From an uncultured Planctomycetales bacterium (GTDB taxonomy: Bacteria; Omnitrophota; Gorgyraeia; Zapsychrales; GWA2-47-8), in the NCBI GenBank assembly GCA_964499685.1, contig CAZCLW010000001.1:28278-92277 (forward strand): a stretch of 64,000 nucleotides of DNA, written 5' to 3'. Of the stretch, positions 39,001 through 63,000 are shown piece by piece. The notes below the pieces were generated by a model. That model worked only from the letters and a program-made list of their open reading frames with translations. It did not search any database and was not told the DNA's origin. Each line of letters opens with the position of its first letter. The first letter of the stretch is position 1. A program made the position numbers and the translations under genes.

Positions 39001-42000
39001 AAAATTGGATAAAGCCTGGGAGTCCGGCAGCTTCTTTACTAATAGAGAAGATTTAATATCCGGAAATTATAAGGATGAAAAAGCTAAGAAAGAGCTGGAA
39101 GAATCATTAAGAAAGAATTTGGGAGTTTTTGTCCGCGCATGGCTCGAATTCTTACCGTTGTCTCTTATTAACTTACTTAATAAACGAGTCTTCTTGAATA
39201 CATCTGGCTTGAAGACTTTCATTAATGGTGTCTTTGCTATTCCGTTCTTCTTGTTTGATATCTTTATGGTCACACCGATAGAGAAGATAGCTATCGCATT
39301 GTTTGGTAAAAGATATGTGACAAAAATTAATGGTATTGCCGCTCAAGGACCGACCGTAGCTCAGACTCCGCGGAGCGGAAACAACACAAGAAATGGCTTC
39401 ATTCTCACACCGATGTTAGGCGTGCTGGCGACTGGATTTACAGGAATTGTGGCCTTAACTGCAATCGGAAAAGTAACGATTGCGGTAGGAGTTATCGTAG
39501 TGATTGGAATCGTTATGGCAATTGTTTCCAGTATTTTAGACAGAATGCATCCTGAACGAGTTATTCTGCGGAAACAAAGAGCATTAGAACAAGAGGCAGA
39601 GAGGAAACTCAGCAAAGAGGTGAAAGCAAAAATATTATCTAAAATTGAAGCTAAGACAAGTGAAAAAGGTTACAAAATTTCAAGAGCTCACGTTTCTAAA
39701 GCCATTGACTTATTCAAAAGAGATGGTGATTTCAAGGTTGCGGTGAATATTGAATATGAAGAAATTAGGAATCCTCAATATTATGAAGAGTTCAGTGGCC
39801 CATTTGAGCCAGAAACAATTTCTCAATTAAAGCAAATTTCTATAAGCATAGAACCTATTGAACCTGACAAATCCGACACCACCCGCCGTTTACCGGGTGA
39901 GAAGATGATGAACGAAAGAGTCATTAAAGCCCAGATCACCAAGAACGGCGGTATCAATGCTTATACGGCCCTGACGACCGAGAGCGAAGAAGCTAAATTG
40001 GCCCGCGAAGTTGTCCGCAGGATCTTCGGCGAACAAGCGCCTGTCCAGTTAGAAGCGATGATCGCAGCCGGCTTATTAAGGGCCGGTCCGCTGGCCGGTG
40101 CGATCGCTGCCAATGTCACCATTAATAGAAAACGTACCATCATTCTCGGTACGACATATCCTGCCTATAACAATCTGACCCAGCGCGTTATCAGCATTGT
40201 TCATGAATTCGGCGCTTTGCGTGGCTTGTCCGATGCTGAAAACGAAGCCAAAGAAGTCGAAGCCCGCAAGATCTTAAGCGAGATCAGTGAAAAAGATTTC
40301 ATCGCCATCAATGATCTGACCAAGACCTTCGAAATGCTCAAACATAAAGAAGAAGTCACGGTCGGCTTCGTGAAGGGCAACAAAGTCGAACACGAAGTCA
40401 AAATGGCTGTTCCGGCCGCCCGCGGCAACGAAATCAAAGATGTCGCTGAATATATCGCCGTCCGCATCGCCGGTACCTTGTCCAAGATCGGCGCCGAAGG
40501 CATTATCATCCATACCAAGAGCGATGAATTATTCGCGGCTGTTGAACAGTTATTCAAAGGTAAATACGGCCGCGTTCCGAGCTACTTCAGCACGATCTAC
40601 GAAACCAAATTCAGAACTGTCCGCGCTGCTTCCACGAAAGAAACCAGAGCCGCTAAAGTTGCCGAAACCAAAGCCGCCGAAGCCATCGATTACAGCAAAG
40701 GCCGCGTGGTCGGTATCGACGTGGGTGCGAGCGACGTGAAAGTCATCAGCTTCGTCAACGGTAAAGTCGTCTACGGTAAAGAAATCAACTGGAAATCGGT
40801 CGAGTTCCGCCGCTCCGAAATGCATTTAAGATATTACGTCCTGATGGCCCAGATCGCCGAAGTCGCTATCTGGCTGTACGAAGATCGCGATGCCAAGTTC
40901 GATGCCTTAAGAGAAGAATTGAAACACTTAGGACATGATGCCAACAGCCCGCTCGACAAAATCGAAGCTTTCATCAATAAAGTTAAAGAATCCGGTATCC
41001 AGAGAAGCACGCTAGATGCGATCGGTTTAAGCACGGCCGGCGCGGTCGTCAATGGCCGTATCGTCCAGGAAGGCGCCCGCGTCTATCAGGGTATCGAAGC
41101 CGAAGAATTCTGGACCAAGGTCGCTCCGATGGCCCGCCGCATTTCCGAATCCATGAACGGTGTTGTGGTCGGCTTATTGAACGACGGTGACGCCGGTGCC
41201 GTCTCCGTCGCCGGAACGTTAGGATTAAAGAAGACGTTAGCCCTGAGCTTGGGTACCGGTTTGGCCGGTGGTTATGTTGACGGCAACGGTCTGGTCACCG
41301 AAAATCTCGGAGAAATCGGTAAAGTCAGTATCGATGTTTCCGCTCACAGCGGCAAGAAAGGTTATGTCCATGAAGGTCTCATGATCCCGGGTGCGTTACA
41401 GCAATATACTTCACAACGCGGTGTCCTGCGTCTGGCCCGCCAAGTCTGGCCGAACATGGACCGTGAATTCGAAGAAAAGAAGGCCCGCGAATTCGTCGTC
41501 AAATACAGTGTTCAGTTGGTCGAAGGTGAAGACGTGGTCGCCCAAGTCATGGCCGGTTTAACCGGTGATAAGCTCGAAGAATTCAAGAAAGCTATCGGCG
41601 ACAGGCCGAAACTGAAATATGTTCAGAGCAAATTGGCTTCGACGAATGCGGTTGAACAAGAACAGGCCCGCTGGATCTTCAGAAAGATCGGCGAATACCT
41701 GGCCGTCGCTGTGGATGTCACGGCCGAAGATCTCGATATCGAAACCGTCGTTCTCTTTGGTGCCGTTACCGCCGGTGAAGCCGGAAGATTACTCGTCGAA
41801 AGCACCCAGTCCAAATTAAACGAAGCTGGATTAAGCATCCAGGTGAAGCTGGCTTCTGAAGAAGATTACGCCGCTAAATTCGGTCAGGAAATCAGCGATG
41901 AATTCGGCAAACAATTCGCTTCCAGATTCGGTCAGGCGGTCGGTGCCGTCTATATGGGCTTACAGGAAAAGGTCAGCCCGAAGACAGGCGAACCGATCAG

Positions 42001-45000
42001 CGATGAAGAAGTCGCCCGCCGCTTCGCCGGTACACCGGAATACGGTATTCATCTCCAGCGCGTGAGACTCGAGCGCGGTTTGGCCGATGCCCGCAACTAT
42101 CATGATGTGGTTGTCTTATTGGTGAAGGGCGACAGCTTGAAGTACGCGGCCGAAGCGATCGAAAACGCCAAGGGCCGTATCATTCCGGAAGCCAGTAACG
42201 TCATCCAGATTCCGGTCACGATGAGCGTGGAAGAAGCCGCTGCTCAGATCCGCGCCATGATGGAAAAACGTCGCACAAGCGGTGAGGTCGCCGTCATCCT
42301 CGATGTTGTTGAAGAAGATATCAGTGGAAACTTATCCGCCGTATTAAGAACCGCCCGTAAACTGGTTGCCGGCGGCGTCAATCTCAATACGGATCGCATC
42401 GCCATGATTCTCGCCGGTGGCGATGGAAAGCGTAACTATCCGATTACTTTGGCCGAAGGTTATGGTAATAAAGGCTTGGTCAGCTCCTTAAACGGCGAAC
42501 CGAACATCTATCAGGCTATCAAACAGAGCTTACAGATCATCGGTGAAGGTAACGTCGGCATGGTCAGCTTGTCCACCGACCGCATCTTCGGTATTACCCA
42601 GCCGTTAGCCAACTTAGGCAAACAGGGTATTCAGTTGTTAGGCAGCGAAATCGCAAAAGATCATCCGGAATGGGATTATTACGGTAAAGTCGAAGCTGAC
42701 GCGGAAGGCCGCTTGGTTGCTCTCCACAAGAGAAAATCCGAACCCGAAGCCGCCTACTTAGGCCGCGATCTAAGCAGAAAATACTTCCCAGCCAACAATT
42801 TGACTATCTACTATTTCAATGCTCACGTCATCAACGAATTCATCAAAGAGGGCGGCATTGAAAATGGTCCGGATATCGCCCGCAAAGATCAGGATCTCAA
42901 CCAGGTCTTAGGTAAAGGTCTCGCGACTCTTCAGGCCGCCGGCATCGATCTCGGCTTCGTCTCCACCGGTGCCGATACCTATATCACCGATCTCGGCACC
43001 AATGACCGCTACTATGTCGGTTATCAAGCCTTGTTCACAGATGCCATTTTAAGACAGCTCGTCGGCTATTCCTTCATGGAGCCGAAGGTGATCGTCAGCG
43101 CCGATGTCCGCTTGGGCAAGGCTGTCAAGATTGAGAATGGCGCCATCATCTTAGGCAAAGGTTCGATCGAAGCTGGACTCATTGAGAAGGGTGCGGTGGT
43201 GATCAATACAACGGCTAAAGAGGTCGAAGCCAAAAACGGTAGCTTGATCGTGGGCGGTTTTGCTCCGGAAGGAAAGATCATCGGCATCGGCGGAGAAGTT
43301 TTGAGCGATGTTGCTATCAATGCGGAGGGCAAGAAAGTCAACGTCCGCGTCACGATCGATGTTAACGCCGATCCGAAAGAAAAATGGAACGAAAAGCAAT
43401 TCGGCGGATACAGCTACAGCGATCTAAAGAAATATCTCGATTACGAAGAGATGCACAGGCGTCATAGCGGTGTTGAGCTCTTGGGCTACGGCACCGGCCC
43501 CGTCCAAAAGGTCGGTTACGATGAAGTAAGAGCCGGTTACGCCGACAAGTACCAGGTCGAAGCCGACTTAAGAAGAGGCGAATTCTACGCTCATGGCACG
43601 GCCTCCAAAGAATTAGCCGAGATGTTGAAGAATGCCTACGGCCGCCTGCGCGAGCTGGTCAAGGCCGATAGCAGCCTGGAAGCCTACTTCAACGAGATCA
43701 TCAACCGCAAGGATAACGCAGTCAGCACGACCATCCATGTCTCAAGTAAACTCCCGATCGACTCGGTAAGACGCTTCTCCTATCAGAGAGAGTGGCTGAT
43801 GATCATCTTCAACCAGGCCTTCATCGAGTTCCTCTTAAAGCACTATAAGGATCCGTCCAATAAAGAAGCCGTTGAGTACCTCCTGGCCGAGAGACTCTTC
43901 CATGAGTTGGGCCACACCAATAACGTCACCTATGTCAGAGGCGCCATCCGCGAAGAGTTGGGCCTGATCAAAAGAGACGTTCAATTGATCCGCGTGGAGG
44001 CCCAGACCGAAGCCGCCGCCAAGATCGCCGCCTTTAAGGCCCTGGTCGCCTCAGCGGGTCAAGAAGACCTGGCCGCTGAGACCTTCTACCGCGGTAAACT
44101 CGAAGAATTCGGCCGCATGACCGACAAGGCCCAGGAAGAGGCCATCCGCAATTATCTGATGGAATACCATATCGACGGTGAGTATGAGATCGCCGGCCAC
44201 AGGGAATGGATCGTCTTAAGGAACAAAAAGGCCCTAGAATCTATCGCCAAGGCGGTCAAGAAAGACCTTAAGGCCATGCTCGCCCAGGTTGCCAAGGAAA
44301 CCGGCAAAACAGAAACCGAGATATTAGCCGGTACTTTAGCCAGCAAAGAGGTCATGGCAATGACCGCTTCCAGAGTCGATGAAGAAAGAAAAAGATATTT
44401 CCAAGAGCACAATATCAAGAAGGTGGTCGTTGTCATAGGCGGTAACGGTTCCCTCTCGGTCAACGCCCCGGCCCTGCAGAACCAGGAAGATACCGCTATC
44501 GTCCTGGTCCAGGCCATCACCGATAACGGCGGAAGAACAGGTGAACAGGAGATCGAATTAAGGCCGGGCAAAGGACGCACCATCGGCTTAGGCGACCAGG
44601 CGGCCGCCGTTGCCAGCGGCTTGCTGACGGATGCCTTCTTGAACAGAAAGATGTACTCGAACTTCAGCGCGGATAAAGACGATGCCGAGACACCCGGTAC
44701 CCTGGAAGGTGTTGTCATCTATGCCATCAAGAGCAAGTTCCCTGAAATGATCGAAAAAGAATTCGGCATCATCGAATTCATCGTCGAACAGCTCAACATG
44801 GCCAGGATCATCGATGGGGAGTTCGGCGGATTCGACTACAGCGACAAGGCCAAGGCCTATGAGAAGAAGTTCCGCTTCCAAGGAAAGAGCATCCGTAACT
44901 TGCATATGCTGGCCCTCTGGCATGAGATGGGCGCCTTCCGGGACCTCAGGGACGGCGGCGGGGTCGACGAAGAAAGGGCCAAAGTGGCCATGTACATGAT

Positions 45001-48000
45001 GGAACGCGCCTGGGGCGTTGAAGGCCGCTTCCATGTCGTCCCGGTCGCCCTGGAACCGGCGACCTTAAAGGCCGTGTATGCTCAGCCTATCGCCGAGAAG
45101 ATGCTGGGTAAATTACGTAAATTAGACACCGATGCCATGCTCAACTTCGACACCAAGTATGTCGTCCGTAACGAGCAAGGCGAGATCATCGGCGTCTACG
45201 GCCAGAAGTTCATGGATCAGCTCAAAGGCAACAAGCTTGTTGAGTATAGGCTGGTCAAGAGCGAAGAAGATGAGAACGCTCAGCTCCCGTCCATGAACCC
45301 TGAGGTCGGGGAATGGCTCCAGAGAGCCGATGCCATCATCTTCGGACCTGGCAGCCTGTATTCGAGCATCCTCTCGCAGCTGACCGTTCCGGGCCTGGCG
45401 GTGGCGGTAAGGAATGCCAAGGCTGCCCGCAAGATCTGGTTCTTCAACCATGTCAACATGGAAGAGACCAGCAACTACACCTTCATGGATTATGTCAACG
45501 CGATCGAACGTGTCTTGAGCACCCGGGAAGTTGCCATGGCCGGCAATATGATCCAGGTCATTAGAGTAAGCCGCGATCACGGCACAGCCCGCTATATTGA
45601 AGATGCCGACCATGTTTATAAGGATGAACAGGGCAACAACTATGTCAAGATAGGCGACCTGGTCAATACCGTCTTGAGCAACAATCCGTACGGGGCAGCC
45701 GTGGATGCTTACATTCAGCAGCATGGATTGAACCAATACGGTGAACCGCAAGAAACAGCTTACACCAACGGTAGCCCGCTGCTCGATGAACAAAAGAGAC
45801 TTAAATTCGTCGGCCGAGATGGCACCATCTATGCCGGCATGGAAGATAATAACGTCCTTCAGCGCTCTAAAGTCGAAGTCCCAGCTGAAAAGGGCGTCTA
45901 TGAGTTCTATCCGATCTTGGTTGCGGAGGATGGAAGGATTATCCGCGTCTCCAAAGACGATCTCGTCCAGGTCGAGATCCGTCCCGGCGTCTATGGCTAC
46001 ATGAGCCCGTATGTGTATGTCAACAGACATGTCTATGCGGTCCTGAAGAACCCGGCATTGATGAGAGAGTTAGGTATCGACCTGACCAGTGACGAAGGCC
46101 TCAAGGTCCTCTGGCTCTTAAGCTGGTCCGAACAAGACGGCAAGCTCTATCACAGCCGTTCGGAAGCCGGCAAATGGGAAAAACTGGTCTACGCCGCCGA
46201 TAGTGACGTTACCGAATTAGAGACCAGAGGCATCAAGAAAGACAATGTCTTAAGAGAGCGTATCGTCAACGTCGCCCGCAAGGACTTGAAGGCCGCCGTG
46301 GGTGAAGCGGTCATCGAGACCATGGGCGGTACGGACGCCACCTCCGTGGGCAAGGTGTTCGAGGCGATGGACCTGTTGGGGAGAGATATAACCCGCCGCT
46401 TACCTGGTGAAAAAATGCTCAGTGAAAAATCCGTTAAGACCCAGATTGCTGAAAACGGCGGTATTCAGGCTTATGCGAGTATTGCCGCAAACAGCCAAGA
46501 AGCCAGATTAGCCGCGGCCATTATTAAGAAAATGCTGGGAGAAAGAGCCGCATCTCAATTAAAGAATATCGTGGATGGCGGAATGTTAAGGGCCGGTCCG
46601 TTAACGGGTGCCGTTGCTGCAAATATAATCATTGATGGAAAACGCATTATCATCCTCAGCACCACATATCCCGCCTATAACAATCTCATTGAAAGAATCA
46701 TCAGTATAGTTCACGAAATCGGCGCTATCCAAGGCTTAAGCGATGCCGCTAACGGAGAGCTTGAGGCTAAAGTTCTTATTTTATTAGAGAAGTTTACGGA
46801 AGCTATTGAAGATATTTTCCGGCTCACGGCTGCCTTTGAACGCAAAACCCTCCGGACCCGAGAGAGCATCATTGACTTCTTGATCGGCTGGTTGGAAAGC
46901 GGTGAGAATTTTGCTTATGAGAAATTGGACATCATCAAGATCCGTAAAGGCAAAGAGATCGTTGCAGGAAGCTTAAATGCCCGCTTAGCTCACGACTTAG
47001 GATTCCGTCACAGATCAGCCAATGCCTTTGTGGTCGCGCCGGATGGCAAAGTGGTCTTCCAAAGACGTGCTCATCATAAACGGGCAGCGCCTTGGCAGAT
47101 ATCCATCTACGGCGGCCATGTCAAGGCCGGTCATTCTTATGAGCATACGATCCTTCATGAAGAGTTACCTGAAGAGTTGGAAATCACCAAGCAATTGAAA
47201 GGACGTTTAGTGCGCGTCGGCAAGGAAGGCGCTTTCCGGTGGGATTCAAAGGGTAATAGAGATGTCAGCACCTTATACGTTTATTTCTTAACAGAAGAAG
47301 AGTATGAGGCTATTCGCGAACATGCCTTCCAGCTGGAAGAAATGAAATCAAGGATGACCGAAGATGAATTCAAGGCATGGCTCGAACAGCAGGCCAAACA
47401 GCATCCCGGCCATTACGAAGTCTATAAGATCATTTTCGAAAATATCGAACGTCTGGCCGGACGCCGTTCCTTCCTCGTTACCGAGAGCTACAACGATAAG
47501 ACTGTGACTGAAGATGTGGCGTTCACTAAAGACGTCATGTCGACCTTGATGAATGATGCGGCATTAATGGAGGAAATCAAGGGTATCATCGATCAAGAAT
47601 TAGGCGAAGTCGACATGCTCGGCTACGGCACCGGCCCCGTCCAAAAGGTCGGTTACGATGAAGTAAGAGCCGGTTACGCCGACAAGTACCAGGTCGAAGC
47701 CGACTTAAGAAGAGGCGAATTCTACGCTCATGGCACGGCCTCCAAAGAATTAGCCGAGATGTTGAAGAATGCCTACGGCCGCCTGCGCGAGCTGGTCAAG
47801 GCCGATAGCAGCCTGGAAGCCTACTTCAACGAGATCATCAACCGCAAGGATAACGCAGTCAGCACGACCATCCATGTCTCAAGTAAACTCCCGATCGACT
47901 CGGTAAGACGCTTCTCCTATCAGAGAGAGTGGCTGATGATCATCTTCAACCAGGCCTTCATCGAGTTCCTCTTAAAGCACTATAAGGATCCGTCCAATAA

Positions 48001-51000
48001 AGAAGCCGTTGAGTACCTCCTGGCCGAGAGACTCTTCCATGAGTTGGGCCACACCAATAACGTCACCTATGTCAGAGGCGCCATCCGCGAAGAGTTGGGC
48101 CTGATCAAAAGAGACGTTCAATTGATCCGCGTGGAGGCCCAGACCGAAGCCGCCGCCAAGATCGCCGCCTTTAAGGCCCTGGTCGCCTCAGCGGGTCAAG
48201 AAGACCTGGCCGCTGAGACCTTCTACCGCGGTAAACTCGAAGAATTCGGCCGCATGACCGACAAGGCCCAGGAAGAGGCCATCCGCAATTATCTGATGGA
48301 ATACCATATCGACGGTGAGTATGAGATCGCCGGCCACAGGGAATGGATCGTCTTAAGGAACAAAAAGGCCCTAGAATCTATCGCCAAGGCGGTCAAGAAA
48401 GACCTTAAGGCCATGCTCGCCCAGGTTGCCAAGGAAACCGGCAAAACAGAAACCGAGATATTAGCCGGTACTTTAGCCAGCAAAGAGGTCATGGCAATGA
48501 CCGCTTCCAGAGTCGATGAAGAAAGAAAAAGATATTTCCAAGAGCACAATATCAAGAAGGTGGTCGTTGTCATAGGCGGTAACGGTTCCCTCTCGGTCAA
48601 CGCCCCGGCCCTGCAGAACCAGGAAGATACCGCTATCGTCCTGGTCCAGGCCATCACCGATAACGGCGGAAGAACAGGTGAACAGGAGATCGAATTAAGG
48701 CCGGGCAAAGGACGCACCATCGGCTTAGGCGACCAGGCGGCCGCCGTTGCCAGCGGCTTGCTGACGGATGCCTTCTTGAACAGAAAGATGTACTCGAACT
48801 TCAGCGCGGATAAAGACGATGCCGAGACACCCGGTACCCTGGAAGGTGTTGTCATCTATGCCATCAAGAGCAAGTTCCCTGAAATGATCGAAAAAGAATT
48901 CGGCATCATCGAATTCATCGTCGAACAGCTCAACATGGCCAGGATCATCGATGGGGAGTTCGGCGGATTCGACTACAGCGACAAGGCCAAGGCCTATGAG
49001 AAGAAGTTCCGCTTCCAAGGAAAGAGCATCCGTAACTTGCATATGCTGGCCCTCTGGCATGAGATGGGCGCCTTCCGGGACCTCAGGGACGGCGGCGGGG
49101 TCGACGAAGAAAGGGCCAAAGTGGCCATGTACATGATGGAACGCGCCTGGGGCGTTGAAGGCCGCTTCCATGTCGTCCCGGTCGCCCTGGAACCGGCGAC
49201 CTTAAAGGCCGTGTATGCTCAGCCTATCGCCGAGAAGATGCTGGGTAAATTACGTAAATTAGACACCGATGCCATGCTCAACTTCGACACCAAGTATGTC
49301 GTCCGTAACGAGCAAGGCGAGATCATCGGCGTCTACGGCCAGAAGTTCATGGATCAGCTCAAAGGCAACAAGCTTGTTGAGTATAGGCTGGTCAAGAGCG
49401 AAGAAGATGAGAACGCTCAGCTCCCGTCCATGAACCCTGAGGTCGGGGAATGGCTCCAGAGAGCCGATGCCATCATCTTCGGACCTGGCAGCCTGTATTC
49501 GAGCATCCTCTCGCAGCTGACCGTTCCGGGCCTGGCGGTGGCGGTAAGGAATGCCAAGGCTGCCCGCAAGATCTGGTTCTTCAACCATGTCAACATGGAA
49601 GAGACCAGCAACTACACCTTCATGGATTATGTCAACGCGATCGAACGTGTCTTGAGCACCCGGGAAGTTGCCATGGCCGGCAATATGATCCAGGTCATTA
49701 GAGTAAGCCGCGATCACGGCACAGCCCGCTATATTGAAGATGCCGACCATGTTTATAAGGATGAACAGGGCAACAACTATGTCAAGATAGGCGACCTGGT
49801 CAATACCGTCTTGAGCAACAATCCGTACGGGGCAGCCGTGGATGCTTACATTCAGCAGCATGGATTGAACCAATACGGTGAACCGCAAGAAACAGCTTAC
49901 ACCAACGGTAGCCCGCTGCTCGATGAACAAAAGAGACTTAAATTCGTCGGCCGAGATGGCACCATCTATGCCGGCATGGAAGATAATAACGTCCTTCAGC
50001 GCTCTAAAGTCGAAGTCCCAGCTGAAAAGGGCGTCTATGAGTTCTATCCGATCTTGGTTGCGGAGGATGGAAGGATTATCCGCGTCTCCAAAGACGATCT
50101 CGTCCAGGTCGAGATCCGTCCCGGCGTCTATGGCTACATGAGCCCGTATGTGTATGTCAACAGACATGTCTATGCGGTCCTGAAGAACCCGGCATTGATG
50201 AGAGAGTTAGGTATCGACCTGACCAGTGACGAAGGCCTCAAGGTCCTCTGGCTCTTAAGCTGGTCCGAACAAGACGGCAAGCTCTATCACAGCCGTTCGG
50301 AAGCCGGCAAATGGGAAAAACTGGTCTACGCCGCCGATAGTGACGTTACCGAATTAGAGACCAGAGGCATCAAGAAAGACAATGTCTTAAGAGAGCGTAT
50401 CGTCAACGTCGCCCGCAAGGACTTGAAGGCCGCCGTGGGTGAAGCGGTCATCGAGACCATGGGCGGTACGGACGCCACCTCCGTGGGCAAGGTGTTCGAG
50501 GCGATGGACCTGTTGGGGAAAAAGCCGGTCCAGCCGGCCAAACAGATCTTAGATCAAGAATTTGTCTCCATTACCGATACACAAAAAGCCTATGAAGCTT
50601 TAGAACGTAAAGAAGAAGTAAGAGTCGGATATTTGCGGGGCGGAAAAGTTTATCATGAAGTGGTCATGACCGTTCCGGTAGCCAGAGCTGAAGAAGAGAT
50701 TGCAACGGTTGCTGAGTATGTGACTTTAAGGATTGCCGGAACATTATCCAGGGTCGGCGCTGAAGGCATCGTTATCTATACTCCGGCCAAGAAGGTCTAT
50801 CAGCAGATTGAAGCGTTATTGACCCAGAAATATGGCCGTGTCCCGAGCTATTTCAGCGGTATTTATGAGACCAGATTCGGAATAAAGAGAGCCAAAAGAT
50901 CGTGGGAAACAAAAGTCAAAGCCTCAGCCGCCGAAGCCATCGCTAAAGAAATTAAATATGATCAAGGTCGTGTGGTCGGCATCGATGTGGGGGCCAGCGA

Positions 51001-54000: not shown

Positions 54001-57000
54001 TTACATTGCGACCGCCAACCTCACCACCCAGGAAGTCAACGTTCATCCGCAGTACTTCACGTTGGAACCTGTTAAACAATTCGAAATTCTTTACCACGAG
54101 ATCGTCAGCCATATCGTCAATAAAGAGGCCGATGAAACGGCAGCCATGGCCGATACGAAGCGCCTTATGGTTCTTTATGAGATCTTCGACGGTAAGATCG
54201 TGGCTTTAAGCCAGTACATCGAAAGGGCCATTAAGGCCAAGAATTCTTCACTCTCAGCTGTTGTCCGGGGCGCCTTCCATGAAGCCGATAAATTGCAGAC
54301 CCGCGAAACGGCCAAAGCCCATACCGCCAAAGAACAAAAAGACCAGGTGCTTTCCTTCGGCGGCGGCAGCGGCATGCTGGTCATCCTGAAGGCCTTAAAA
54401 CAATTGACCGATCATGACTTAAATATCTTCGCGGTCCAAAGCTCGATCGACGACGGCGGCTCCACCTACAAGCTGGTCACTTCCCTGATGGAGGCCGGTT
54501 TCGGAAAGATCGTTTCCATCGGCGACCTGGTCAACGCTCTGTTCAAAGGGTTTGGTTCGACCGACAAACTCTATAAGCTTCTGGATGATCAAGGCCGTGT
54601 CAGCTTGACCACCAAGGCTGATTTAAAGAAAGATATGCCGGCTTTGGATAAAGAAGGCCGTGTATTCAAGGAAGGCAAGATCATCTTCTTTGATGAAGAC
54701 GGCGGCGTTGTTTACGTGGATTCCCTTAAGGAATTGGTCATCCGCCTCTTAAAGCGTAATGTGGAATATACAGTCGGGAACGGTGCGGGCATCGGTTATC
54801 TGGAACGGGAAAAGACCTCCACCTTAAGCCATGATTTTGTCTATTTTGCCGCCAGCCTCCTGAACCTGATCGATATTGTCGAACCGTATTTCACCCGCAA
54901 TATCATCCCGCTCAAAGGGGCCAGCATCCGCAATCTTCTGTTCGTGGCCGTCTTAGAATACCTCGGCTTGATCAACATCGACGCGCCGAAATATACGCCC
55001 GGCTCCCAGGCTTCCACTTTAAGCGACGAGAATATGAAGGAGATGGAAGCCGGCCTGGGCCTACTGGGCTCCATGGCCGGTATCTCCAAAGGACATGTTT
55101 TATTGTCACATAACCACCCGGCCACGGTTTATGCCGTGTATGAGGGCTATGTCATCCTGATCGAAGAACCGGAAAGCGACACTGAAGACAATAAACATTT
55201 TATCGTGGTCAATCTCAATAAAGAAATGCGCGAGGCGGTGGTTAAGGTCTACCGTGTCGCCCAGGAAAACGGACATGCAAAATTGATCAGCACTTCCCAT
55301 CCGGTGAATTATGCCGCCGCCAACAAAGTGGTCACCATCAGGATCGCGAACGGAAGGATATTGATCCGGATGATGGTCGATCATTTTGGGACCTTTAAGT
55401 TCGATGCGGTCCGCAGGGCCGACAAGACAGATGCGTTTGATTATATTGAGATCCATGAAGAAGCGGATCATATGGAAGAAAACTTCGTGGTCTATCAGGG
55501 CGGCGAACACCGCCTGTCCCAGGACGGCACGGGTATGGTCCGCTTCACTGCCGAGCAAGCCGGCGCTTACGAATACCGTCCGCTCAACGCGAACGGATTG
55601 AATATCTATGTCCGCAACCGTCTGGTCGCCATGCAGACCAATATCACCGAAACGGCCAATTATTCCAAGATCGTTGATTTCGGTATCGCCCAGGAAGCCG
55701 GCGAAGAACTGGTCAAAGAGGCCAAGGGCGTTTCCAAGCGCACGGTTTATGCGCCGAGCCCGAACAAACGCCTGAAGGCCAATGACGCCGTCATCGAAAG
55801 AATATTATCGCCCAAGACCAAAGCGATCACCTTCGGTCCCGGCTCACCGTTTACCAGTACACTGATCCATCTTTTGGTCAGCGATGTCCCCGAAGCCCTG
55901 GCCAAACGCAAGGCCAAAGGCGATATCCGCATTGTCTTTTTGGCCAATCCGACCGTGGACAATGAAAGCGCCGGTTACAGCCTGGAAGGCATGATGGACT
56001 TTATCGAGCAGAAGACCGGTTACCGCTTTGACGATCTCTTCACCGACGTCAATCTGACCGAGTTCGATACGACCAAATTAGAGAACTATCAGCAGATCAG
56101 TGAGGCCAACCGGCCGATGGATGCCTCCTGGTACGTCGATGAGGTTCTGAATAATTTTGAGATCCTGAATCAACTTGGCCTGGTTTATCTCCGCCTGCTT
56201 TATCGCGAAGAAAAAGAGATGGAAGAAGAGGTACGGCGCCAATACATGATCAAGGATGTCGCCGCGCTCCTGAAAGCCCTGTATCAAATCCCCACAGCTG
56301 AGATCAGGACCGATCCGGGCCAGAGCTCCAAAGAGGCCAAGAAATCCCGCGGCCCGCTGGTTGTGGACGCGTTCGAGCTTTCTCGCATCAAGCAAAAATA
56401 TACCGAGCTGCGCATTCACCGCGGGTATTTCGTTGTGGGTATGGAATACAGAGCGCCGCGCGAACCCGGCCGCGGGTTGACCGCCGGCATCGGCTTCCTT
56501 CCGGATTATACACAGTACGCGTTGGGCGACATTTTAGGTATCCGCTATTTCGACCGCGAGATCGCCGAGGCCTACATGAAAGTTTCTTCCGGCCTTAATG
56601 CAGGCGATATTGATACCTTCGAATTTATTTTCCTCCGCCCGGCCTTGAAGACCCGTATTATCGAGCAGCTCAGTCCCGAAGCCAGGGTCTATTTCGGTCA
56701 ATTATCTTTGAACCAGTTCAAGCGCCGCGTTCGGGAAGTCCTGGTAAGAGATAACCTGCGCAAAGACCGCCGCGGAGGTTTGGGTATTGCCCTGACGGCC
56801 CAATTGAGATATGCGGACCATGAAGAGCAGGGAGAATTGAATGACCTTTTGACCCGGCTGACCGGGCGCATACGCTTGATCAGCGATAACCGCGCGGTAT
56901 TGGAATACGGGGAAGCTCCTGCGGACTTTTTGCGCGTGACCATTTCCTCCATTGTGCGCACGATCTTCTTCGATCCTAAACAGCCAGCCACATTCAATGC

Positions 57001-60000
57001 CGCCAAGACCGAGCTGGCGGGTAAAACCACGCATTTACAGGAATTGAGCCAAAGCATGGTCGTCAACGGAAAAGTTGTCCGCGGTCTGGAGAAGGGCCTT
57101 GTCCGCATCGCTGAGCAAAGCGCGCCATTTACCGTAAGGATCAAAGGTGTCGGTTATAACCGCCTGCATGGTGATATCTATCTGGAACTGGAAGCGACCA
57201 GCGAAATCGTTGAAGAAGACGGGCAAAAAATCCCGGCCTTGCAGAGCCGGCAGAAGGGATTGCAGCAGCTGCCTATCGAAATAAATCCTGTCCATGCCAG
57301 CATTCCTCTTCACGTTTCTCTCGGGAAAGTGACCGAACCTATGGATGAACAGCAATCGCGCGATATCGAACAATTAAGCCAGTTAGTGACCGAAGCGCAA
57401 TTGCCTGAGTTCCATGTCGGCCGGATAGCGGTCATTTTCTACGGTCACCGTCTGCACCGGAGCATTATCCATCAGCATGATCTGCTTTTAGGTCAGGAAA
57501 ACGGTGCTTTCGCCCTGGAAGATTTTATCGCCAAGGCGGATAAAGCTTATCGTCTTGAACCGGAAGAAAAAGACGCAGAGGCCCCGGCCGTCCGCGAAGG
57601 ATTATTGGAGGGCAATGAAAAGATCGAGAAATTGATCAACTCCATTGTGTACCGTTGGCAGGAGATCGTTGAACGCGGGGCGTTCGTCTTCGACGTGGAC
57701 GGCACCTTATTGCCCAAGGGTAAAACACTGCGTGCCTTTACACAATTGGCCAATCTGCTCGTTGAATTGCTGCGGGCCAATGTCAGGATCGCCATTATCT
57801 CCGGCAACGCGGAGGCGGCCCAAAGGGAAAATATCGTCCAGCCATTAATGGAAAAATTAGGCCCGAACAAACATCTCTTGCAAGGTTTGACCATGTACGT
57901 CAACGGCGGGGCCACCAAGATCGGCTTCAACGAAGAAGGAGAAGAGTTCTACAACCTTGAGTACAACCGCCGCCATGTGATGGAATCGGCCGATCTGGCT
58001 TACTTTATCACGGTTTTAAGGGAGATGGCGCTGCGCGGGTTCAATTTAAACGACCAAGAACAGACGGAAGTGTTTGAGGCCTGGAAGTCGTTCGCTTCAA
58101 CGGATGAGTACCGTAATATCCAGTTCGATTTCAGCTGGATGACCGGCAATGCGGATTGGACGCCGAGCATTATTTCCGCCGAAGACCTGTTGAAGATGAA
58201 ACGCGAAGGCGGTTCCATAACCTGGCCGTGGGTGGAGCTCAGAGGTCAATTCGAAGAAGGGAAAATGGCCAGCTTTACGATCCGGCCTCTTTTAAGGACG
58301 CCGCATGATGTCCGGCCGGCTGTCATTGCCGCCGTCACCGACAAATTAAAGGAAAAAGCCTCTCAATACGGCATCCGTCTGGCAGGGTTATCTTCCATCG
58401 ACGTCACGCAATTAAGGGCCAATAAGGTCCAAGCCTTGACCGACTTTATTTCTGCTCAAAACCTGGATGGCGCTAGGACATTCTATTTTGGCGATGAATT
58501 CTTCCATCAAGTGATCGAAGGCTTCGAGAATGTTATCGATGAAGGTAACGATGAGCCCATCGCCCGGGATAAAGCGCTACGCAAGAAAGGCGTGGTCACC
58601 TTAAGTGTGTATGCCCATGAACAAAGCGGCTCAAAGGCCAGCTTATGGATCGGCCGCGGCCCGAAAGCGGTTACGGAATTTTTGGGCAAGGTCGTTAAGC
58701 GCCTTGAAACCCTGCCGCGCGAAAACAATGTCCAAGAGAAAATTATTTTCGAACATACGTTCATCCTGGAACCGCGGCACTTTATTGATTCCTCCGAAAG
58801 GGCCATGTTAAGAAAATCGATCAAGAGCATGATCAAAATAGAATGGTCGCGCGCGCCGCATGCGGATGATGTAGCCTCGGCCGAGGCGCTTATCCAGAAT
58901 GTGATCAGATCAAGACAAGATGTGTACCGTCAGGAGTATGCCTCGATGCCCGGGGATGAATTCTTCCGTGAATCAACGCTCGGCAAAAGCTTTGATTTTG
59001 CTTTGGAAGAGATCCTCAAGAACGCCTTCGATGCCTATGTGGCCAAGAATGCCATCGGCCCGATTCTTATACAGGTTAAAGAACAAGGCCATGCTTATGT
59101 CATCGAAGTCTCAGAAGACGGTATCGGTATCGAGTTCAGTTTGACCCGGCATGATCCTGAAAACGGCTGGCAGATCATCCGGCGGACCGGCAACGGCAAA
59201 TCACTGGCGGTCCGGGAAGGCGGCGACGGAATGGGATCACTGTGGGCGGAACTGTTAATGGAAGTCTACGGCGGATCGCTCGATTATGTGCCGGCCACCC
59301 GTCCCGGATTTGTCACCACCGCCCGGATGACCTTACCGAAGGATGCCATAACGGTCACTGTCCTTCCCAATCACATCCGCAAGGAAGCGGCCGGACAAAA
59401 TCATCCGGCGGCGAAGAATGCCAAGCGGTTGAAATTCGGGACCAGCGGCCTAAGAGGGCTGGTGGCTGAACTGACTGACATGGAAGTCTACATTAACGTT
59501 AAAGGTTTCTTGTATTATCTGATCGCCGGTAACCGCATTCAATTCGGTGATACCGTGGCGCTTGGTGAGGACTTGCGTAAGAGTTCGCCTGATATCGCCC
59601 GTGCGGTCGCCAAGGCCATGCAAGACAGCCTGATGCAGGTCATGAATGCCGGACAAGTGCCTTCCCCGGCCCTGGCCCATTATGCTCTGACCCACGCTGT
59701 GGCCGGCATCATGGTGACCGGAAGCCACATCCCCGATGACCGTAACGGCATCAAGTTCATTAAACCTGACGGGGAAGTATTGAAAGAAGATGAAGCCGCC
59801 ATCTTGAAATGGGTTGAAACGATCCGCATCGAAGAATACGCCAAGACTCTTGGACAATCTTTATTTGATGAGAACGGCAAGTTCAAGGCTGTGCCGGAAA
59901 AAATCGCGGCTACGCCGGATGTCCGCCAAGCCTACATCGACCGCTATCTGAGCCTCTTGCCTCAGGATATCTTGAGCGGTAAAAAGGTCGTTGTTTATCA

Positions 60001-63000
60001 GCATTCTTCCGTGGGCCGTGACATTCTGGCCGAGGTCCTGGCCGGTTTGGGCGCTGAGGTCGTGCCCGTCGACCGCAGCGATGAATTTGTTGCCATCGAT
60101 ACAGAACATGTCACGGAAGAAGACCGTATCTATTTCGCCGATCTCGCCCGCCAGCACTCCGATGCCTTTGCCATAGTGTCCATGGACGGCGATGCAGACC
60201 GGCCGTTTGTGATCGATGAGGCCGGGACCTTCCACCGCGGGGACGTTCTGGGGATCATCGTCGCTGTTTATCTTAAGGCCAAGTTTGCCGCGCTTCCGGT
60301 CAGCTCCAATGATGCCGCTGAAGAAGAGCTCTCTAAATATGGTATTGCGCTCAAGAAGACCAGGATCGGCTCGCCTTTTGTCATCAAAGCCATGAACGAA
60401 GCTATCGCCGGCGGGAACAACCATGTGGTCAGCTGGGAAGTCAACGGCGGGTTCCTCACGGGTACGGATTTCGCGTTCGGTCAAGGTATCCTCAAAGCCC
60501 TTCCGACAAGGGATGCGGTCCTGCCTATCCTTACGGTCATGCTGGCCGCCATTGAACAAAGGCTTTCTCTGTCTCAATTGTTCGCCCGCTTGCCCGGTCG
60601 CTATACCCAGGCCGGCCTGCTGGATAACTTCCCGATGGAAACCTCCAAGCGTGTCATTGCCGCCCTTTCGCCGGTCACGGAAGTCCAAATCGAACAGATC
60701 GAGTTCAACATCAATCATATTACCGTCCAGCTGGCCGACGGCACGAGAAATATCGTCATGCCGAACGAACCGTTCAGTCATGAACTGTGGAAGATAGCGA
60801 CCTTGATCACGGAACACTTCAGCCCCAAACAAGGCTTTGGAAGGATCATCAGTATTAATTATATCGACGGCGTACGCATCACGTTTGACCATAGAGATAT
60901 TGTTCATTTCCGTCCCTCAGGCAATGCGCCGCAGTTCCGCATTTATGCGGTCAGCCAGTCGCAGGCGCGGGCCGATGAGATCGTCGCCTTAGGCCTGGCG
61001 GAACCGGACGGTATCCTGCGTAAATTCGAACAGGAATTTGCGTCAGCCTCTGCTGCGGTCGCTCCTTCGCCGGAAAAAGTGATCGTTGAGGAAAGATTGA
61101 CCTTCGCCGAAACGGATTTCGAGAATGCCATGTCCAGGACCGGCAAGCGGTATGACCTGCTCAAGAAACTCGGTTTAGCGTGGGGCCGCACGCCGGATCC
61201 GGCGCTTATCGAACAGGCCAAGCCATTGATAGACGATCTCGTTCGCCGCCGCTTACGATGGCATCAGGATGAAGGTATTTATGAGCTCTATGACGGCACG
61301 GCCATTACGGAAGAACATCTGCGTGAAGGCGTTGTTAACAATACACTGCACTTCGTTGCCGACGAAATATTAAAGAACGCCTTCGATGCCTATGTCCGGG
61401 CTAACGCGACCGGTCCGATCCTGTTCCGGATCATTGAAAAGGACGAAAAGGTCATTATCGAGATCTCCGATAACGGTATCGGCGTCGATTTCAAATATTC
61501 ACGCAAGGATCCGCGCGGCTTCTGGTCGGTCTATTCACAAGGCCGCAAAACCTCTGAGATATCGAAGGGCGAAGTGGAGGGCGGGTTAGGCATCGGTATC
61601 CATTGGAGCCAGGTCTTGGCCATGATCCATGGCGGAGGCATGGAATTCCTCGCCGATCAATATCCGGGATATAAGACAACGGTCCGGATAACCTTACCGC
61701 TCGGTGCCGTGCGCATCAATCAGAAATCGGAGCAAGATCCTAAAGGAAAGCCTCAAGGACCGGCCGATCCCGGTGCTACCACAACGCATTCCTTTGAACC
61801 GCATACAATCTTAGGTATGTTGGCCGGTTTCTTAGTGATCCGTAACGCTTATCCGGTCGTTGCTATTGCATTAGAGATCATTGCGGTTGGCATTCTTTCG
61901 GTCATCGCCTACCGCAAATGGGTTGCGCTCAAGCAAGCCTTAGCTAAACAGCAAACTCATATCATATTGGAAAATAACTTTAGGCCGTTGCGCAGCGATT
62001 CCAACCTACCGTGGCGGGTTGTTCGGGATCTTGCAAGCGCAGCGGCCTCTTTATTTAGGCTGTTGTCCAAAGGTTCTAACCTACCGTGGCGGGTTGTTAG
62101 GAATCTTAGTGAGCGATCACTGGCAACAGCCTTTAGCTTTGTTTGGCCGTCTAGGCCGCTGTCCGTCGGCACATTCCCAATCTCCCGTGGCGGGTTGAAA
62201 GGAATTCTTGCTGTGGCAGCGGCCTTACTTGTCACCGATTCGGTTTATGCGGGCAATAATACTCCGGCAGTTTTTGCGACGAACCTGTCTGTTAATGTGC
62301 TGATCGTTCTGGCCGTGTTAGCGGGTATCGGGACGGTTGTTTCCTTGATCATATTCCTGAAGGTCCGCCGGCTTACTGCCGATTCGCTGCTGAAGAGATT
62401 CCGGTTGGCGGTCAGAAAAACCGTGTGGCTCGGGCTTACGACCCTTTACTTCGGCGTCTTTACTTTCCTGGCCGTTAAGCTTCATTTCGCCGTCAATTCT
62501 CAGGATACGGTGAAGATCGCCGAAATACAGCCAATTGTTCCTGAACAAAAAGCCCCATCACTCGAGCAATATTTCCGTGAATACGCCCGGGCCGCTCAAG
62601 TTTATCTTGATCGTCCGACGTTCCGCGGCACACCGTTGACCGGCGCAATGCTCGCCGAGGGCGCCAAAAAAGCCTTCCTTAAGACAGGCATTATCGTTCC
62701 GGTCGAGTTGGCGTTGGCCCAGGCGCAGATAGAAAGCTCCATGGCGAGAGAAGGGCGCAACCCGGCCACAAATCCGTTCAATGTCGGCGAATTCGATGCC
62801 GGAACGCGTATCCGCTTTAGCGGCATTCAAGCCGGCGTCGATGTTTACTTTACTCTTATGACGGAAAATTATCTGAATGCCCGCGGCCTGGATGAATTAT
62901 TGCGTAACTTCGTCAACAAAGATGGTTACCGGTATGCCTCCAACCGGAATTACGAACGCATGCTCAGCGGACAGGTCCAGACCATCCGAAAATATATCAA

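Follow-up and report, generated by a model that had tools for sequence, protein, structure and literature searches.

How enzymes of sugar activation come to be built into a polypeptide threaded through a membrane, and what they might do there, is the question raised by contig CAZCLW010000001.1 (assembly GCA_964499685.1) from an uncultured bacterium of the Omnitrophota. We analyzed 64,000 nt of this contig, hereafter the window. A single stop-free frame spans all of it on the forward strand (frame 2, 21,333 codons) and runs off both ends, so that the encoded protein must be longer than 21,333 aa; no second stop-free stretch of at least 400 codons occurs in any frame. A preliminary description, made by reading the sequence, had placed a set of sugar-nucleotide domains in frame and in order within one polypeptide between nt 40690 and 60990 (aa ~13564–20330), and this one open reading frame (ORF) does carry all of them. 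A Kyte-Doolittle hydrophobicity scan, which is a crude method for topology, found clusters of transmembrane-like helices at aa 7483–7763, 11681–13178 and 20606–21047 and no strong transmembrane candidates between aa 13178 and 20606. Since helix clusters flank the interval and none lies within it, the interval belongs to one soluble stretch, ~7,400 aa long, of a membrane-threaded giant protein.

We propose that this soluble stretch belongs to a giant multi-enzyme protein that is anchored in the membrane and of the Archaeovorin type, that it most likely faces the cytoplasm and that it probably works as a hexose-activation line. Domain identities, catalytic motifs, conservation of a cassette of domains and their co-occurrence in other proteins were observed directly, and from these we infer substrates, reaction order, topology and accessory roles. 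In the first step, a free hexose would be phosphorylated at C6 by a ROK-like kinase with ATP. A phosphomannomutase/phosphoglucomutase domain would then shift the phosphate to C1, and a nucleotidyltransferase (NTase) joined to a left-handed beta-helix (LbH) would combine the hexose-1-phosphate with a nucleoside triphosphate (NTP) to give a nucleoside diphosphate (NDP)-hexose. This product could feed glycosyltransferases for the synthesis of glucan, trehalose or envelope glycan at the membrane. The YvcK/GlmR-like domains that follow each NTase may bind the NDP-sugar and act as its sensors or as accessory nucleotidyltransferases, while HAD-IIB and NUDIX domains might clear sugar-phosphate or nucleotide-sugar intermediates and two GHKL ATPase domains around the mutase may be regulatory.

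Pfam and NCBIfam models were run on overlapping 1,000-aa pieces of the giant translation. Within the region, Pfam recovered CofD three times, NTP_transferase, NUDIX, Hydrolase_3/HAD-IIB, HATPase_c twice and PGM_PMM I–III, which covers most of the families named in the preliminary description, whereas ROK, BcrAD_BadFG and Hexapep were not recovered. The phosphohexomutase had been read as complete, with its Ser and metal loops retained, and so it is: it aligns over four domains with the phosphomannomutase structure 4hjh (E 4e-94; 4hjh residues 2–403 and 417–469), and its Ser (TGSHIPDDRNG), metal (DGDADR), sugar (EVNGG) and phosphate (RPSGNAP) loops are intact. PGM_PMM domains I–III were called with E-values of 2.5e-23, 7e-11 and 4e-9; Pfam did not call domain IV in the window, but it does so in about half of the relatives with ~50% identity. 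Those relatives, which match the mutase over its full length, are thousands of standalone proteins annotated as phosphomannomutase. Two paralogous GHKL domains bracket the mutase, with intact N, G1 and G2 boxes and no recognizable HisKA. They may regulate the mutase or, as a speculation, prime its serine. The HAD phosphatase, with DVDGT at aa 19231, was likewise confirmed, with Hydrolase_3 at 25.9 bits (cut-off 20.9); the model TIGR01484 stays below its cut-off (32.6 vs. 41.8 bits).

Two kinases of the ROK/ASKHA type had been recognized, and both stand, although by an indirect route. Their DVGAS motifs lie at aa 13573 and 16995, and DVGAS, NDGD, GTGLAGG and FGAVTAG, which correspond to the phosphate-1, N-D, phosphate-2 and adenosine motifs of the ASKHA fold, are invariant in four kinase sequences. 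Pfam PF00480 (ROK) gave no match for the excised copy 1 even at E ≤ 5 and none for copy 2 at E ≤ 0.01, and BcrAD_BadFG was not found by Pfam even at E ≤ 5 on the excised copy-1 segments. In NCBIfam, copy 2 reached ROK_glcA_fam with an E-value of only 2e-5 (24 bits vs. a cut-off of 260). A profile of the four kinase sequences, however, matches the ROK glucokinase 2qm1 with the four ASKHA motifs aligned, and the top ~40 Foldseek matches of the AlphaFold model (predicted local distance difference test score, pLDDT, of 60–86 for the domain) are ROK sugar kinases, 2qm1 among them at E 3.7e-10. An exhaustive HMMER search returned 581 relatives at E ≤ 0.001; the best 150 of these are mostly standalone proteins of ~460 aa, and because those tested pass PF00480 (P0014, 54.9 bits), the homology to the ROK family is a transitive one. 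ROK sugar kinases yield 6-phosphates.

Each kinase had been described as followed by a nucleotidyltransferase and a hexapeptide-type beta-helix, an arrangement that the profile comparisons bear out. NTP_transferase (PF00483) passes on copy 1 with 25.8 bits against a cut-off of 21.2, and copy 2 is closely similar (Table 1). The family signature is kept, with LAGGDGKRNYPIT at the place of the (L/A)xGGxGxR...P motif together with NKGL and STDRIF; LAGGDGKR occurs at aa 14137 and 17562. An NTase-LbH profile of 13 sequences, built from relatives, is collinear over core and beta-helix with the UTP-glucose-1-phosphate uridylyltransferase (UGPase) 8x7s (E 4e-6), and it also matches the GlmU beta-helix (E 3.6e-4), ADP-glucose pyrophosphorylase (5.6e-4) and GDP-mannose pyrophosphorylase (5e-3). 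It is profile positions 227–291 that align with the beta-helices of GlmU and 8x7s. Pfam Hexapep gave no match in the window, even at E ≤ 5 on excised copy-1 segments, and a weak match in the homologous region of the relative P0008. Among the NCBIfam equivalogs, the sole match of the NTase was glgC (TIGR02091) at 15 bits vs. 425, so that none was reached. We found no sign that the beta-helix acts as an acetyltransferase as it does in GlmU, and a GlmU-type acetyltransferase was not adopted for want of anything specific to it. The small alpha/beta 'link' domain between kinase and NTase recurs ahead of the NTase in 10 of 17 NTase-bearing relatives, including nearly all of those with a whole NTase-LbH unit.

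The three YvcK/CofD domains of the preliminary description all match CofD (PF01933) above its cut-off of 30 bits, with scores of 61–71, 71 and 44. The first two, however, sit in an exact repeat, so that the three amount to two distinct sequences and one identical copy. They keep the N-terminal GGxG, the D-GG-G and the GPGSLYTS-type motifs of YvcK/GlmR, and in fold and sequence they are closest to the UPF0052 structures 2hzb, 2o2z and 2ppv; the third (aa 18117–18740) is interrupted by an insertion of ~380 aa. The YvcK subfamily model TIGR01826 was not reached (best 63 bits vs. a cut-off of 196). Structures of FbiA/CofD are significant fold matches as well (E 5e-4 to 2e-3), but sequence and fold favor the YvcK/UPF0052 branch, and CofD proper was not adopted for want of anything specific to it. 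GlmR binds UDP-N-acetylglucosamine (UDP-GlcNAc), with Y265 and R301 as UDP-sugar-binding residues in the B. subtilis protein (PMC7525490), and has been reported as an accessory uridylyltransferase (PMC10128056). Unlike YvcK/GlmR, the domains described here are embedded in a giant protein, contain large insertions and have a HExxH domain ahead of them, and no yvcJ/rapZ partner was seen. This helical HExxH domain of ~300 aa precedes each YvcK-like domain (also at nt 47621–48508 and, diverged, at ~53810–54331). It has no Pfam, PDB-sequence or significant Foldseek match (AlphaFold confidence 70–90), and it could be metallopeptidase-like, possibly with a part in self-processing.

Self-comparison and alignments resolve these domains into two modules. 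Module A consists of an X/pre segment, the ROK-like kinase, the link domain, the NTase and the beta-helix, and module B of the HExxH domain, the YvcK-like domain with its insertions and a tail. The full order is A, B, X' with NUDIX, B', A', B'', ~480 aa without a family, HAD-IIB, HATPase_c, PGM/PMM, HATPase_c and transmembrane helices. The cassette of kinase, link, NTase, LbH, HExxH and YvcK-like domains thus occurs twice in the window, and A and A' share 64% aa identity. The X segment recurs at nt 46385–46999 (51% aa identity) and ahead of kinase 2. Modules B and B' form a direct repeat of 2,899 nt that is 100% identical and sharp-edged; the two copies, with a unique spacer of 1,238 nt between them, are offset by 4,137 nt, a number divisible by three, and the frame is kept at both junctions. 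This repeat reflects either a very recent duplication or gene conversion, or else an assembly artefact. The probable ortholog in locus L001 is without the extra B and reads X-A-B, NUDIX link, X-A-B. The preliminary inventory, whose listed domains are real, had missed the exact repeat, the HExxH domains and the NUDIX domain (PF00293, 30.9 bits vs. a cut-off of 21.1).

The cassette is not confined to the window. A word-indexed protein search gave no more than two homologues for module A and two for module B, all fragmentary, and of the nearest named homologues of the cassette modules, two are labelled Candidatus Omnitrophica and come from metagenome-assembled genomes (MAGs). Among the species-representative genomes scanned, three loci carry the cassette. 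In L001 the ORF stays open through all 19.5 kb fetched and follows the order of the window at 57–61% identity, a collinearity that extends to the transmembrane part upstream; it holds the cassette order twice. L003, with the order once, encodes a protein of 5,034 aa (nt 5909–21013); its gene is flanked by proS and rimP/nusA, and the MAG is labelled Planctomycetia. Besides the cassette, this protein comprises PGI, another ROK domain and a Glucosamine_iso/6-phosphogluconolactonase domain. It can be regarded as a 'mini' version of the giant protein, perhaps easier to study. L002 is a short contig encoding the protein P0002. Link, NTase and LbH stay together as one unit in relatives that are more distant, where their fusion partners vary, namely PGM and CofD (P0005), a GT20 trehalose-6-phosphate synthase and uridine kinase (P0009), a eukaryote-type hexokinase with GT2 and HAD (P0010), adenylate kinase (P0008) or an APH-type kinase (P0018). 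These partners would supply the substrate or sugar phosphates, consume the NDP-sugar or regenerate NTP, and what emerges looks like a toolkit of sugar-activation domains shuffled across large proteins. The catalytic motifs are invariant across paralogues and relatives. The earlier expectations that catalytic residues would be retained (LAGGDGKR, DVDGT, DVGAS and the mutase loops) and that kinase, mutase and nucleotidyltransferase steps are supplied together are therefore upheld, the same domains being found fused again in other large proteins.

Which sugar would enter such a line? In chemistry, fold and signature motifs, the three enzymes match classical hexose activation by glucokinase, phosphoglucomutase/phosphomannomutase and an LbH pyrophosphorylase (GlgC, UGPase of the 8x7s type or GDP-mannose pyrophosphorylase). 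In contrast to the classical enzymes, those described here are fused in one polypeptide, duplicated and membrane-anchored, and the similarity of kinase and NTase to characterized enzymes is very low. As judged from homology, the substrate is more likely glucose or mannose than a hexosamine, because the mutase is nearest to phosphomannomutase and falls below the GlmM cut-offs, and the nearest solved NTases are glucose-1-phosphate uridylyl- and adenylyltransferases. The preliminary description had allowed for a hexose or a hexosamine and had leaned toward an arrangement like that of GlmU or MurU. Under the hexosamine alternative, N-acetylglucosamine (GlcNAc), glucosamine (GlcN) or N-acetylmuramic acid (MurNAc) salvaged from peptidoglycan or pseudomurein would be converted into UDP-GlcNAc or UDP-MurNAc by GlmM/GlmU- or MurU-like steps, with the YvcK/GlmR-like domains tuning the supply of UDP-GlcNAc. 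A hexosamine route would suit YvcK/GlmR biology, which is centred on UDP-GlcNAc (PMC7525490; PMC10128056), as well as the Peptidase_M23 domain upstream in the same protein, the Glucosamine_iso domain of L003 and the N-acetylhexosamine kinases NagK and NanK, both found among the kinase's top matches in fold. NCBIfam does rank archaeal and bacterial GlmM first for the mutase, but neither equivalog is reached (TIGR03990, 176 vs. 439 bits; TIGR01455, 100 vs. 448), a standalone phosphomannomutase relative scores equally weakly, and the closest structure is a phosphomannomutase. Similarly, GlmU is among the best PDB matches through its beta-helix only, and the best full-length collinear match is glucose-1-phosphate uridylyltransferase, followed by ADP-glucose pyrophosphorylase. 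Relatives are fused, moreover, to trehalose-6-phosphate synthase and hexokinase. The pairing of mutase and beta-helix NTase does recall GlmM/GlmU, and that of kinase and NTase recalls AmgK/MurU; yet the mutase is not a GlmM equivalog, and AmgK is an APH-type 1-kinase, whereas the kinase here is of the ROK-like type, which gives 6-phosphates. Specific support for hexosamine activation is thus missing, and we consider it unlikely.

A CofD-family domain follows the NTase in every close relative (twice in the window and in L001, and in L003 and P0003), which recalls the CofC/CofD (FbiD/FbiA) pair, FbiA being a significant fold match. In F420 biosynthesis, CofD serves as a phosphotransferase whose substrate is NDP-activated (PMC7525490). 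By analogy, the NTase would make an NDP-linked phospho-compound, and the CofD-family domain would move the phospho-moiety to an acceptor hydroxyl with release of a nucleoside monophosphate, giving sugar-phosphodiester products. We give this little credence, since fold and sequence favor YvcK/UPF0052 over CofD/FbiA, the NTase is of the sugar-1-phosphate/LbH rather than the CofC/MobA type, the order is lost in the more distant relative P0005 and there is no F420-related context. A bolder variant, and a long shot, treats the invariant position of the YvcK-like domain after the NTase as a Rosetta-stone fusion that would disclose what the YvcK/GlmR branch really catalyzes: the NDP-hexose is made and its hexose-1-phosphate is then passed, as phospholactate is by CofD, to a membrane or polymer acceptor, while the flanking GHKL domains prime the mutase serine. 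If true, such a transfer by a YvcK-like domain would mean that phosphodiester-linked glycans can be made by a new route on the inner side of the membrane.

An attack on the wall of prey had also been considered in the preliminary description, and the segment could in principle be an extracellular or delivered effector block acting on or inside a prey or partner cell. Giant proteins of Omnitrophota have been proposed to attach to and degrade prey walls, and their PGM-type domains are sometimes predicted to be extracellular by TMHMM (10.1101/2023.11.21.568195); here, the same ORF encodes Fic, PRTase-CE and M23 domains further upstream. The chances of this explanation are slim, however. Kinase, NTase and GHKL domains depend on ATP or NTP, neither of which is available extracellularly, the segment lies between transmembrane clusters with no adjoining feature for signalling or translocation, and the extracellular call was doubted by its own authors (10.1101/2023.11.21.568195), while a sugar-metabolism module of Pfam domains (starch synthase, GT1, PGM and ROK) has been read as lying on the cytoplasmic face (10.64898/2026.06.07.730766). 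The last upstream helix (aa 13160–13178) has five lysine or arginine residues just downstream and one upstream, a positive-inside pattern which, together with the requirement for ATP/NTP, argues for a cytoplasmic position. PADLOC gave no defense-system or toxin-type matches in the region, and a reading of the segment as a defense or toxin island was dropped on that account. Hardly credible, finally, is an assembly artefact or a scaffold of inactive relic domains: the sharp-edged identical repeat would fit a mis-join or a duplicated contig end, the window sequence was not matched in the public collections scanned, including metagenomes by peptide patterns and by an exact 41-mer, and the NUDIX box and ROK zinc motif are degenerate, but the frame stays open for 64 kb and across the repeat junctions, catalytic motifs do not vary, and independent assemblies (L001, L003 and P0001–P0004) carry the cassette at 40–63% identity, which precludes its being an artefact as a whole.

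Several observations weigh against the proposed hexose-activation line itself. The ROK zinc motif GH...CxCGxxGCxE is absent from the kinase, where the segment aligned with 2qm1 reads GK...HEGLMIPGALQQ and is without cysteines, for which reason we use the term 'ROK-like'; two sugar-contacting positions also differ from those of ROK kinases (K for H and Q for E). NCBIfam scores lie far below every equivalog cut-off, also for the standalone relatives of kinase, NTase and mutase, and since no equivalog is reached, sugar and nucleotide specificity cannot be assigned from these models. The Nudix box reads GGHVKAGHSYEHTILHEELPEELE, with GH for GE and HE for RE relative to GX5EX7REUXEEXGU, and the best NCBIfam neighbors of the domain are isopentenyl-diphosphate isomerase and YfcD; given these neighbors, hydrolysis of nucleotide sugars may not be its function. 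In the YvcK-like domain, the C-terminal third, where the counterparts of GlmR Y265 and R301 fall, did not align with YvcK structures. A search for glycosyltransferase domains found none in the whole 64-kb window, and the TMHMM predictions for PGM-type domains in Omnitrophota giant proteins, which their own authors doubt, sometimes point to the other side of the membrane. The AlphaFold models are poor overall (mean pLDDT 50.8 and 49.1, with only 4–5 homologues); usable are no more than the kinase, link and HExxH domains, together with parts of the YvcK-like one. Structure prediction endorsed the ROK fold of the kinase but did not usefully model the NTase/LbH, and that part of the model was not used.

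The closest known counterparts of the giant protein are the Archaeovorins of Omnitrophota (West-Roberts et al., bioRxiv 10.1101/2023.11.21.568195), which run to tens of thousands of aa, and the class of multi-enzyme metabolic clusters (bioRxiv 10.64898/2026.06.07.730766); their ORFs of tens of kb likewise encode many transmembrane helices and divergent embedded PGM/PMM, ROK, HAD, NUDIX, HATPase_c and peptidase domains. The present protein exceeds 21,333 aa and combines transmembrane clusters with NUDIX, M23, HAD, HATPase_c and PGM domains. Of the glycosyltransferase, methyltransferase, glycosyl hydrolase, peptidase and NUDIX domains that recur in Archaeovorins, the first three, GT5 and GT1 included, were not seen in the window. 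GT5 (glycogen-synthase-like) and GT1 are the commonest glycosyltransferases in Omnitrophota giant proteins, from which PGM/PMM, HAD, NUDIX, HATPase_c and glycolytic enzymes had already been reported (10.1101/2023.11.21.568195). To call the arrangement a novel mega-enzyme, as was done at first, overstates the case, because both preprints report sugar-metabolism modules in giant proteins (10.1101/2023.11.21.568195; 10.64898/2026.06.07.730766). Their main texts do not mention CofD/YvcK or NTP_transferase domains, and a kinase-NTase-LbH-HExxH-YvcK cassette is not described there. The new detail is the conserved kinase-NTase-YvcK cassette and its link to YvcK. It provides a residue-level map of one sugar-metabolism module, in the form of a repeated, conserved cassette with intact catalytic motifs rather than scattered domain matches, and it supports a view in which giant proteins serve, on the cytoplasmic side, as metabolic assembly lines anchored to the membrane. 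The constant fusion of an NTase and a sugar kinase with a YvcK/GlmR-like domain is also an independent, comparative tie between a debated family and the supply of NDP-sugars. In addition, domains of ~400–550 aa could be excised for biochemistry from organisms that are mostly unculturable.

Table 1. Features mapped in the 64,000-nt window, in order of position
Feature	Position (nt)	Strand	Basis or distinguishing motifs
Giant ORF	2..64000	+	frame 2, 21,333 codons, both ends open
Upstream hydrophobic (transmembrane-like) helix cluster	38294..39535	+	Kyte-Doolittle scan
X/pre segment, opening cassette 1	39875..40666	+	self-comparison, alignment
ROK-like ASKHA sugar kinase, copy 1	40679..41986	+	DVGAS, NDGD, GTGLAGG, FGAVTAG kept
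Small alpha/beta 'link' domain, copy 1	41987..42391	+	model, relatives
Sugar-1-phosphate nucleotidyltransferase, copy 1	42392..43066	+	LAGGDGKRNYPIT, NKGL, STDRIF; Pfam, profile
Left-handed beta-helix (hexapeptide-type), C-terminal to nucleotidyltransferase 1	43067..43471	+	alignment with beta-helices of GlmU, UGPase and GDP-mannose pyrophosphorylase (GMPP)
Exact direct repeat, copy 1 (module B: HExxH, YvcK-like, tail)	43484..46382	+	2,899 nt
Helical HExxH domain, copy 1	43484..44371	+	AERLFHELGH; alignment, model
YvcK/GlmR-like CofD-family domain, copy 1, with insertions	44372..45991	+	GGNGSL, DNGGRTG, GPGSLYSS
X' segment, paralogue of cassette-opening X	46385..46999	+	self-comparison
NUDIX-fold domain, IDI/YfcD-like	47006..47401	+	Pfam, NCBIfam
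Exact direct repeat, copy 2 (module B')	47621..50519	+	2,899 nt; HExxH 47621-48508, YvcK-like 2 48509-50128
ROK-like sugar kinase, copy 2	50945..52261	+	68% aa identity to copy 1
Link, nucleotidyltransferase and beta-helix, copy 2	52262..53746	+	LAGGDGKR; 71% identity to copy 1
Module B'', diverged third B-type module: helical domain, then YvcK-like 3	53810..56221	+	YHEIVSH; Pfam, alignment
HAD-IIB phosphatase	57677..58681	+	FDVDGTL, ISGN, GDE...GNDEP
GHKL/HATPase_c domain 1	59000..59344	+	N box EEILKNAFDA, DGIG, GGDGMG
Complete four-domain alpha-D-phosphohexomutase, 'phosphomannomutase' subfamily	59405..61021	+	four active-site loops kept
GHKL/HATPase_c domain 2	61343..61702	+	34% identity to domain 1
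Downstream hydrophobic (transmembrane-like) helix cluster	61817..63142	+	Kyte-Doolittle scan

Across the window, sequence profiles leave most of the giant protein without annotation, including large parts of nt 1–40000. Long stretches have no detectable family, among them aa 18741–19225 (nt 56222–57676) and most of aa 3900–7400 and 8400–13000. No Rfam families or tRNAs were found across the whole window, and five minus-strand ORFs scanned in and around the region gave no Pfam match. Upstream in the same ORF, two PRTase-CE domains (PF24390; window ~5100–5560 and ~10010–10650) lie within an internal repeat of 35% identity (aa 1675–1943 and 3289–3589) and are accompanied by a weak PADLOC match to PRTase_III-A, and a Fic/DOC domain (PF02661, E 1.4e-7) is found at ~8260–8390. 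The Peptidase_M23 domain (E 1.6e-9; ~24870–25110) comes just after the cluster of four hydrophobic helices at aa 7483–7763 and may be a wall-degrading part of the giant protein. Past the downstream transmembrane cluster, a PALP domain (PF00291) of a pyridoxal phosphate (PLP)-dependent enzyme begins at 63722–64000 and is cut by the 3′ end of the window.

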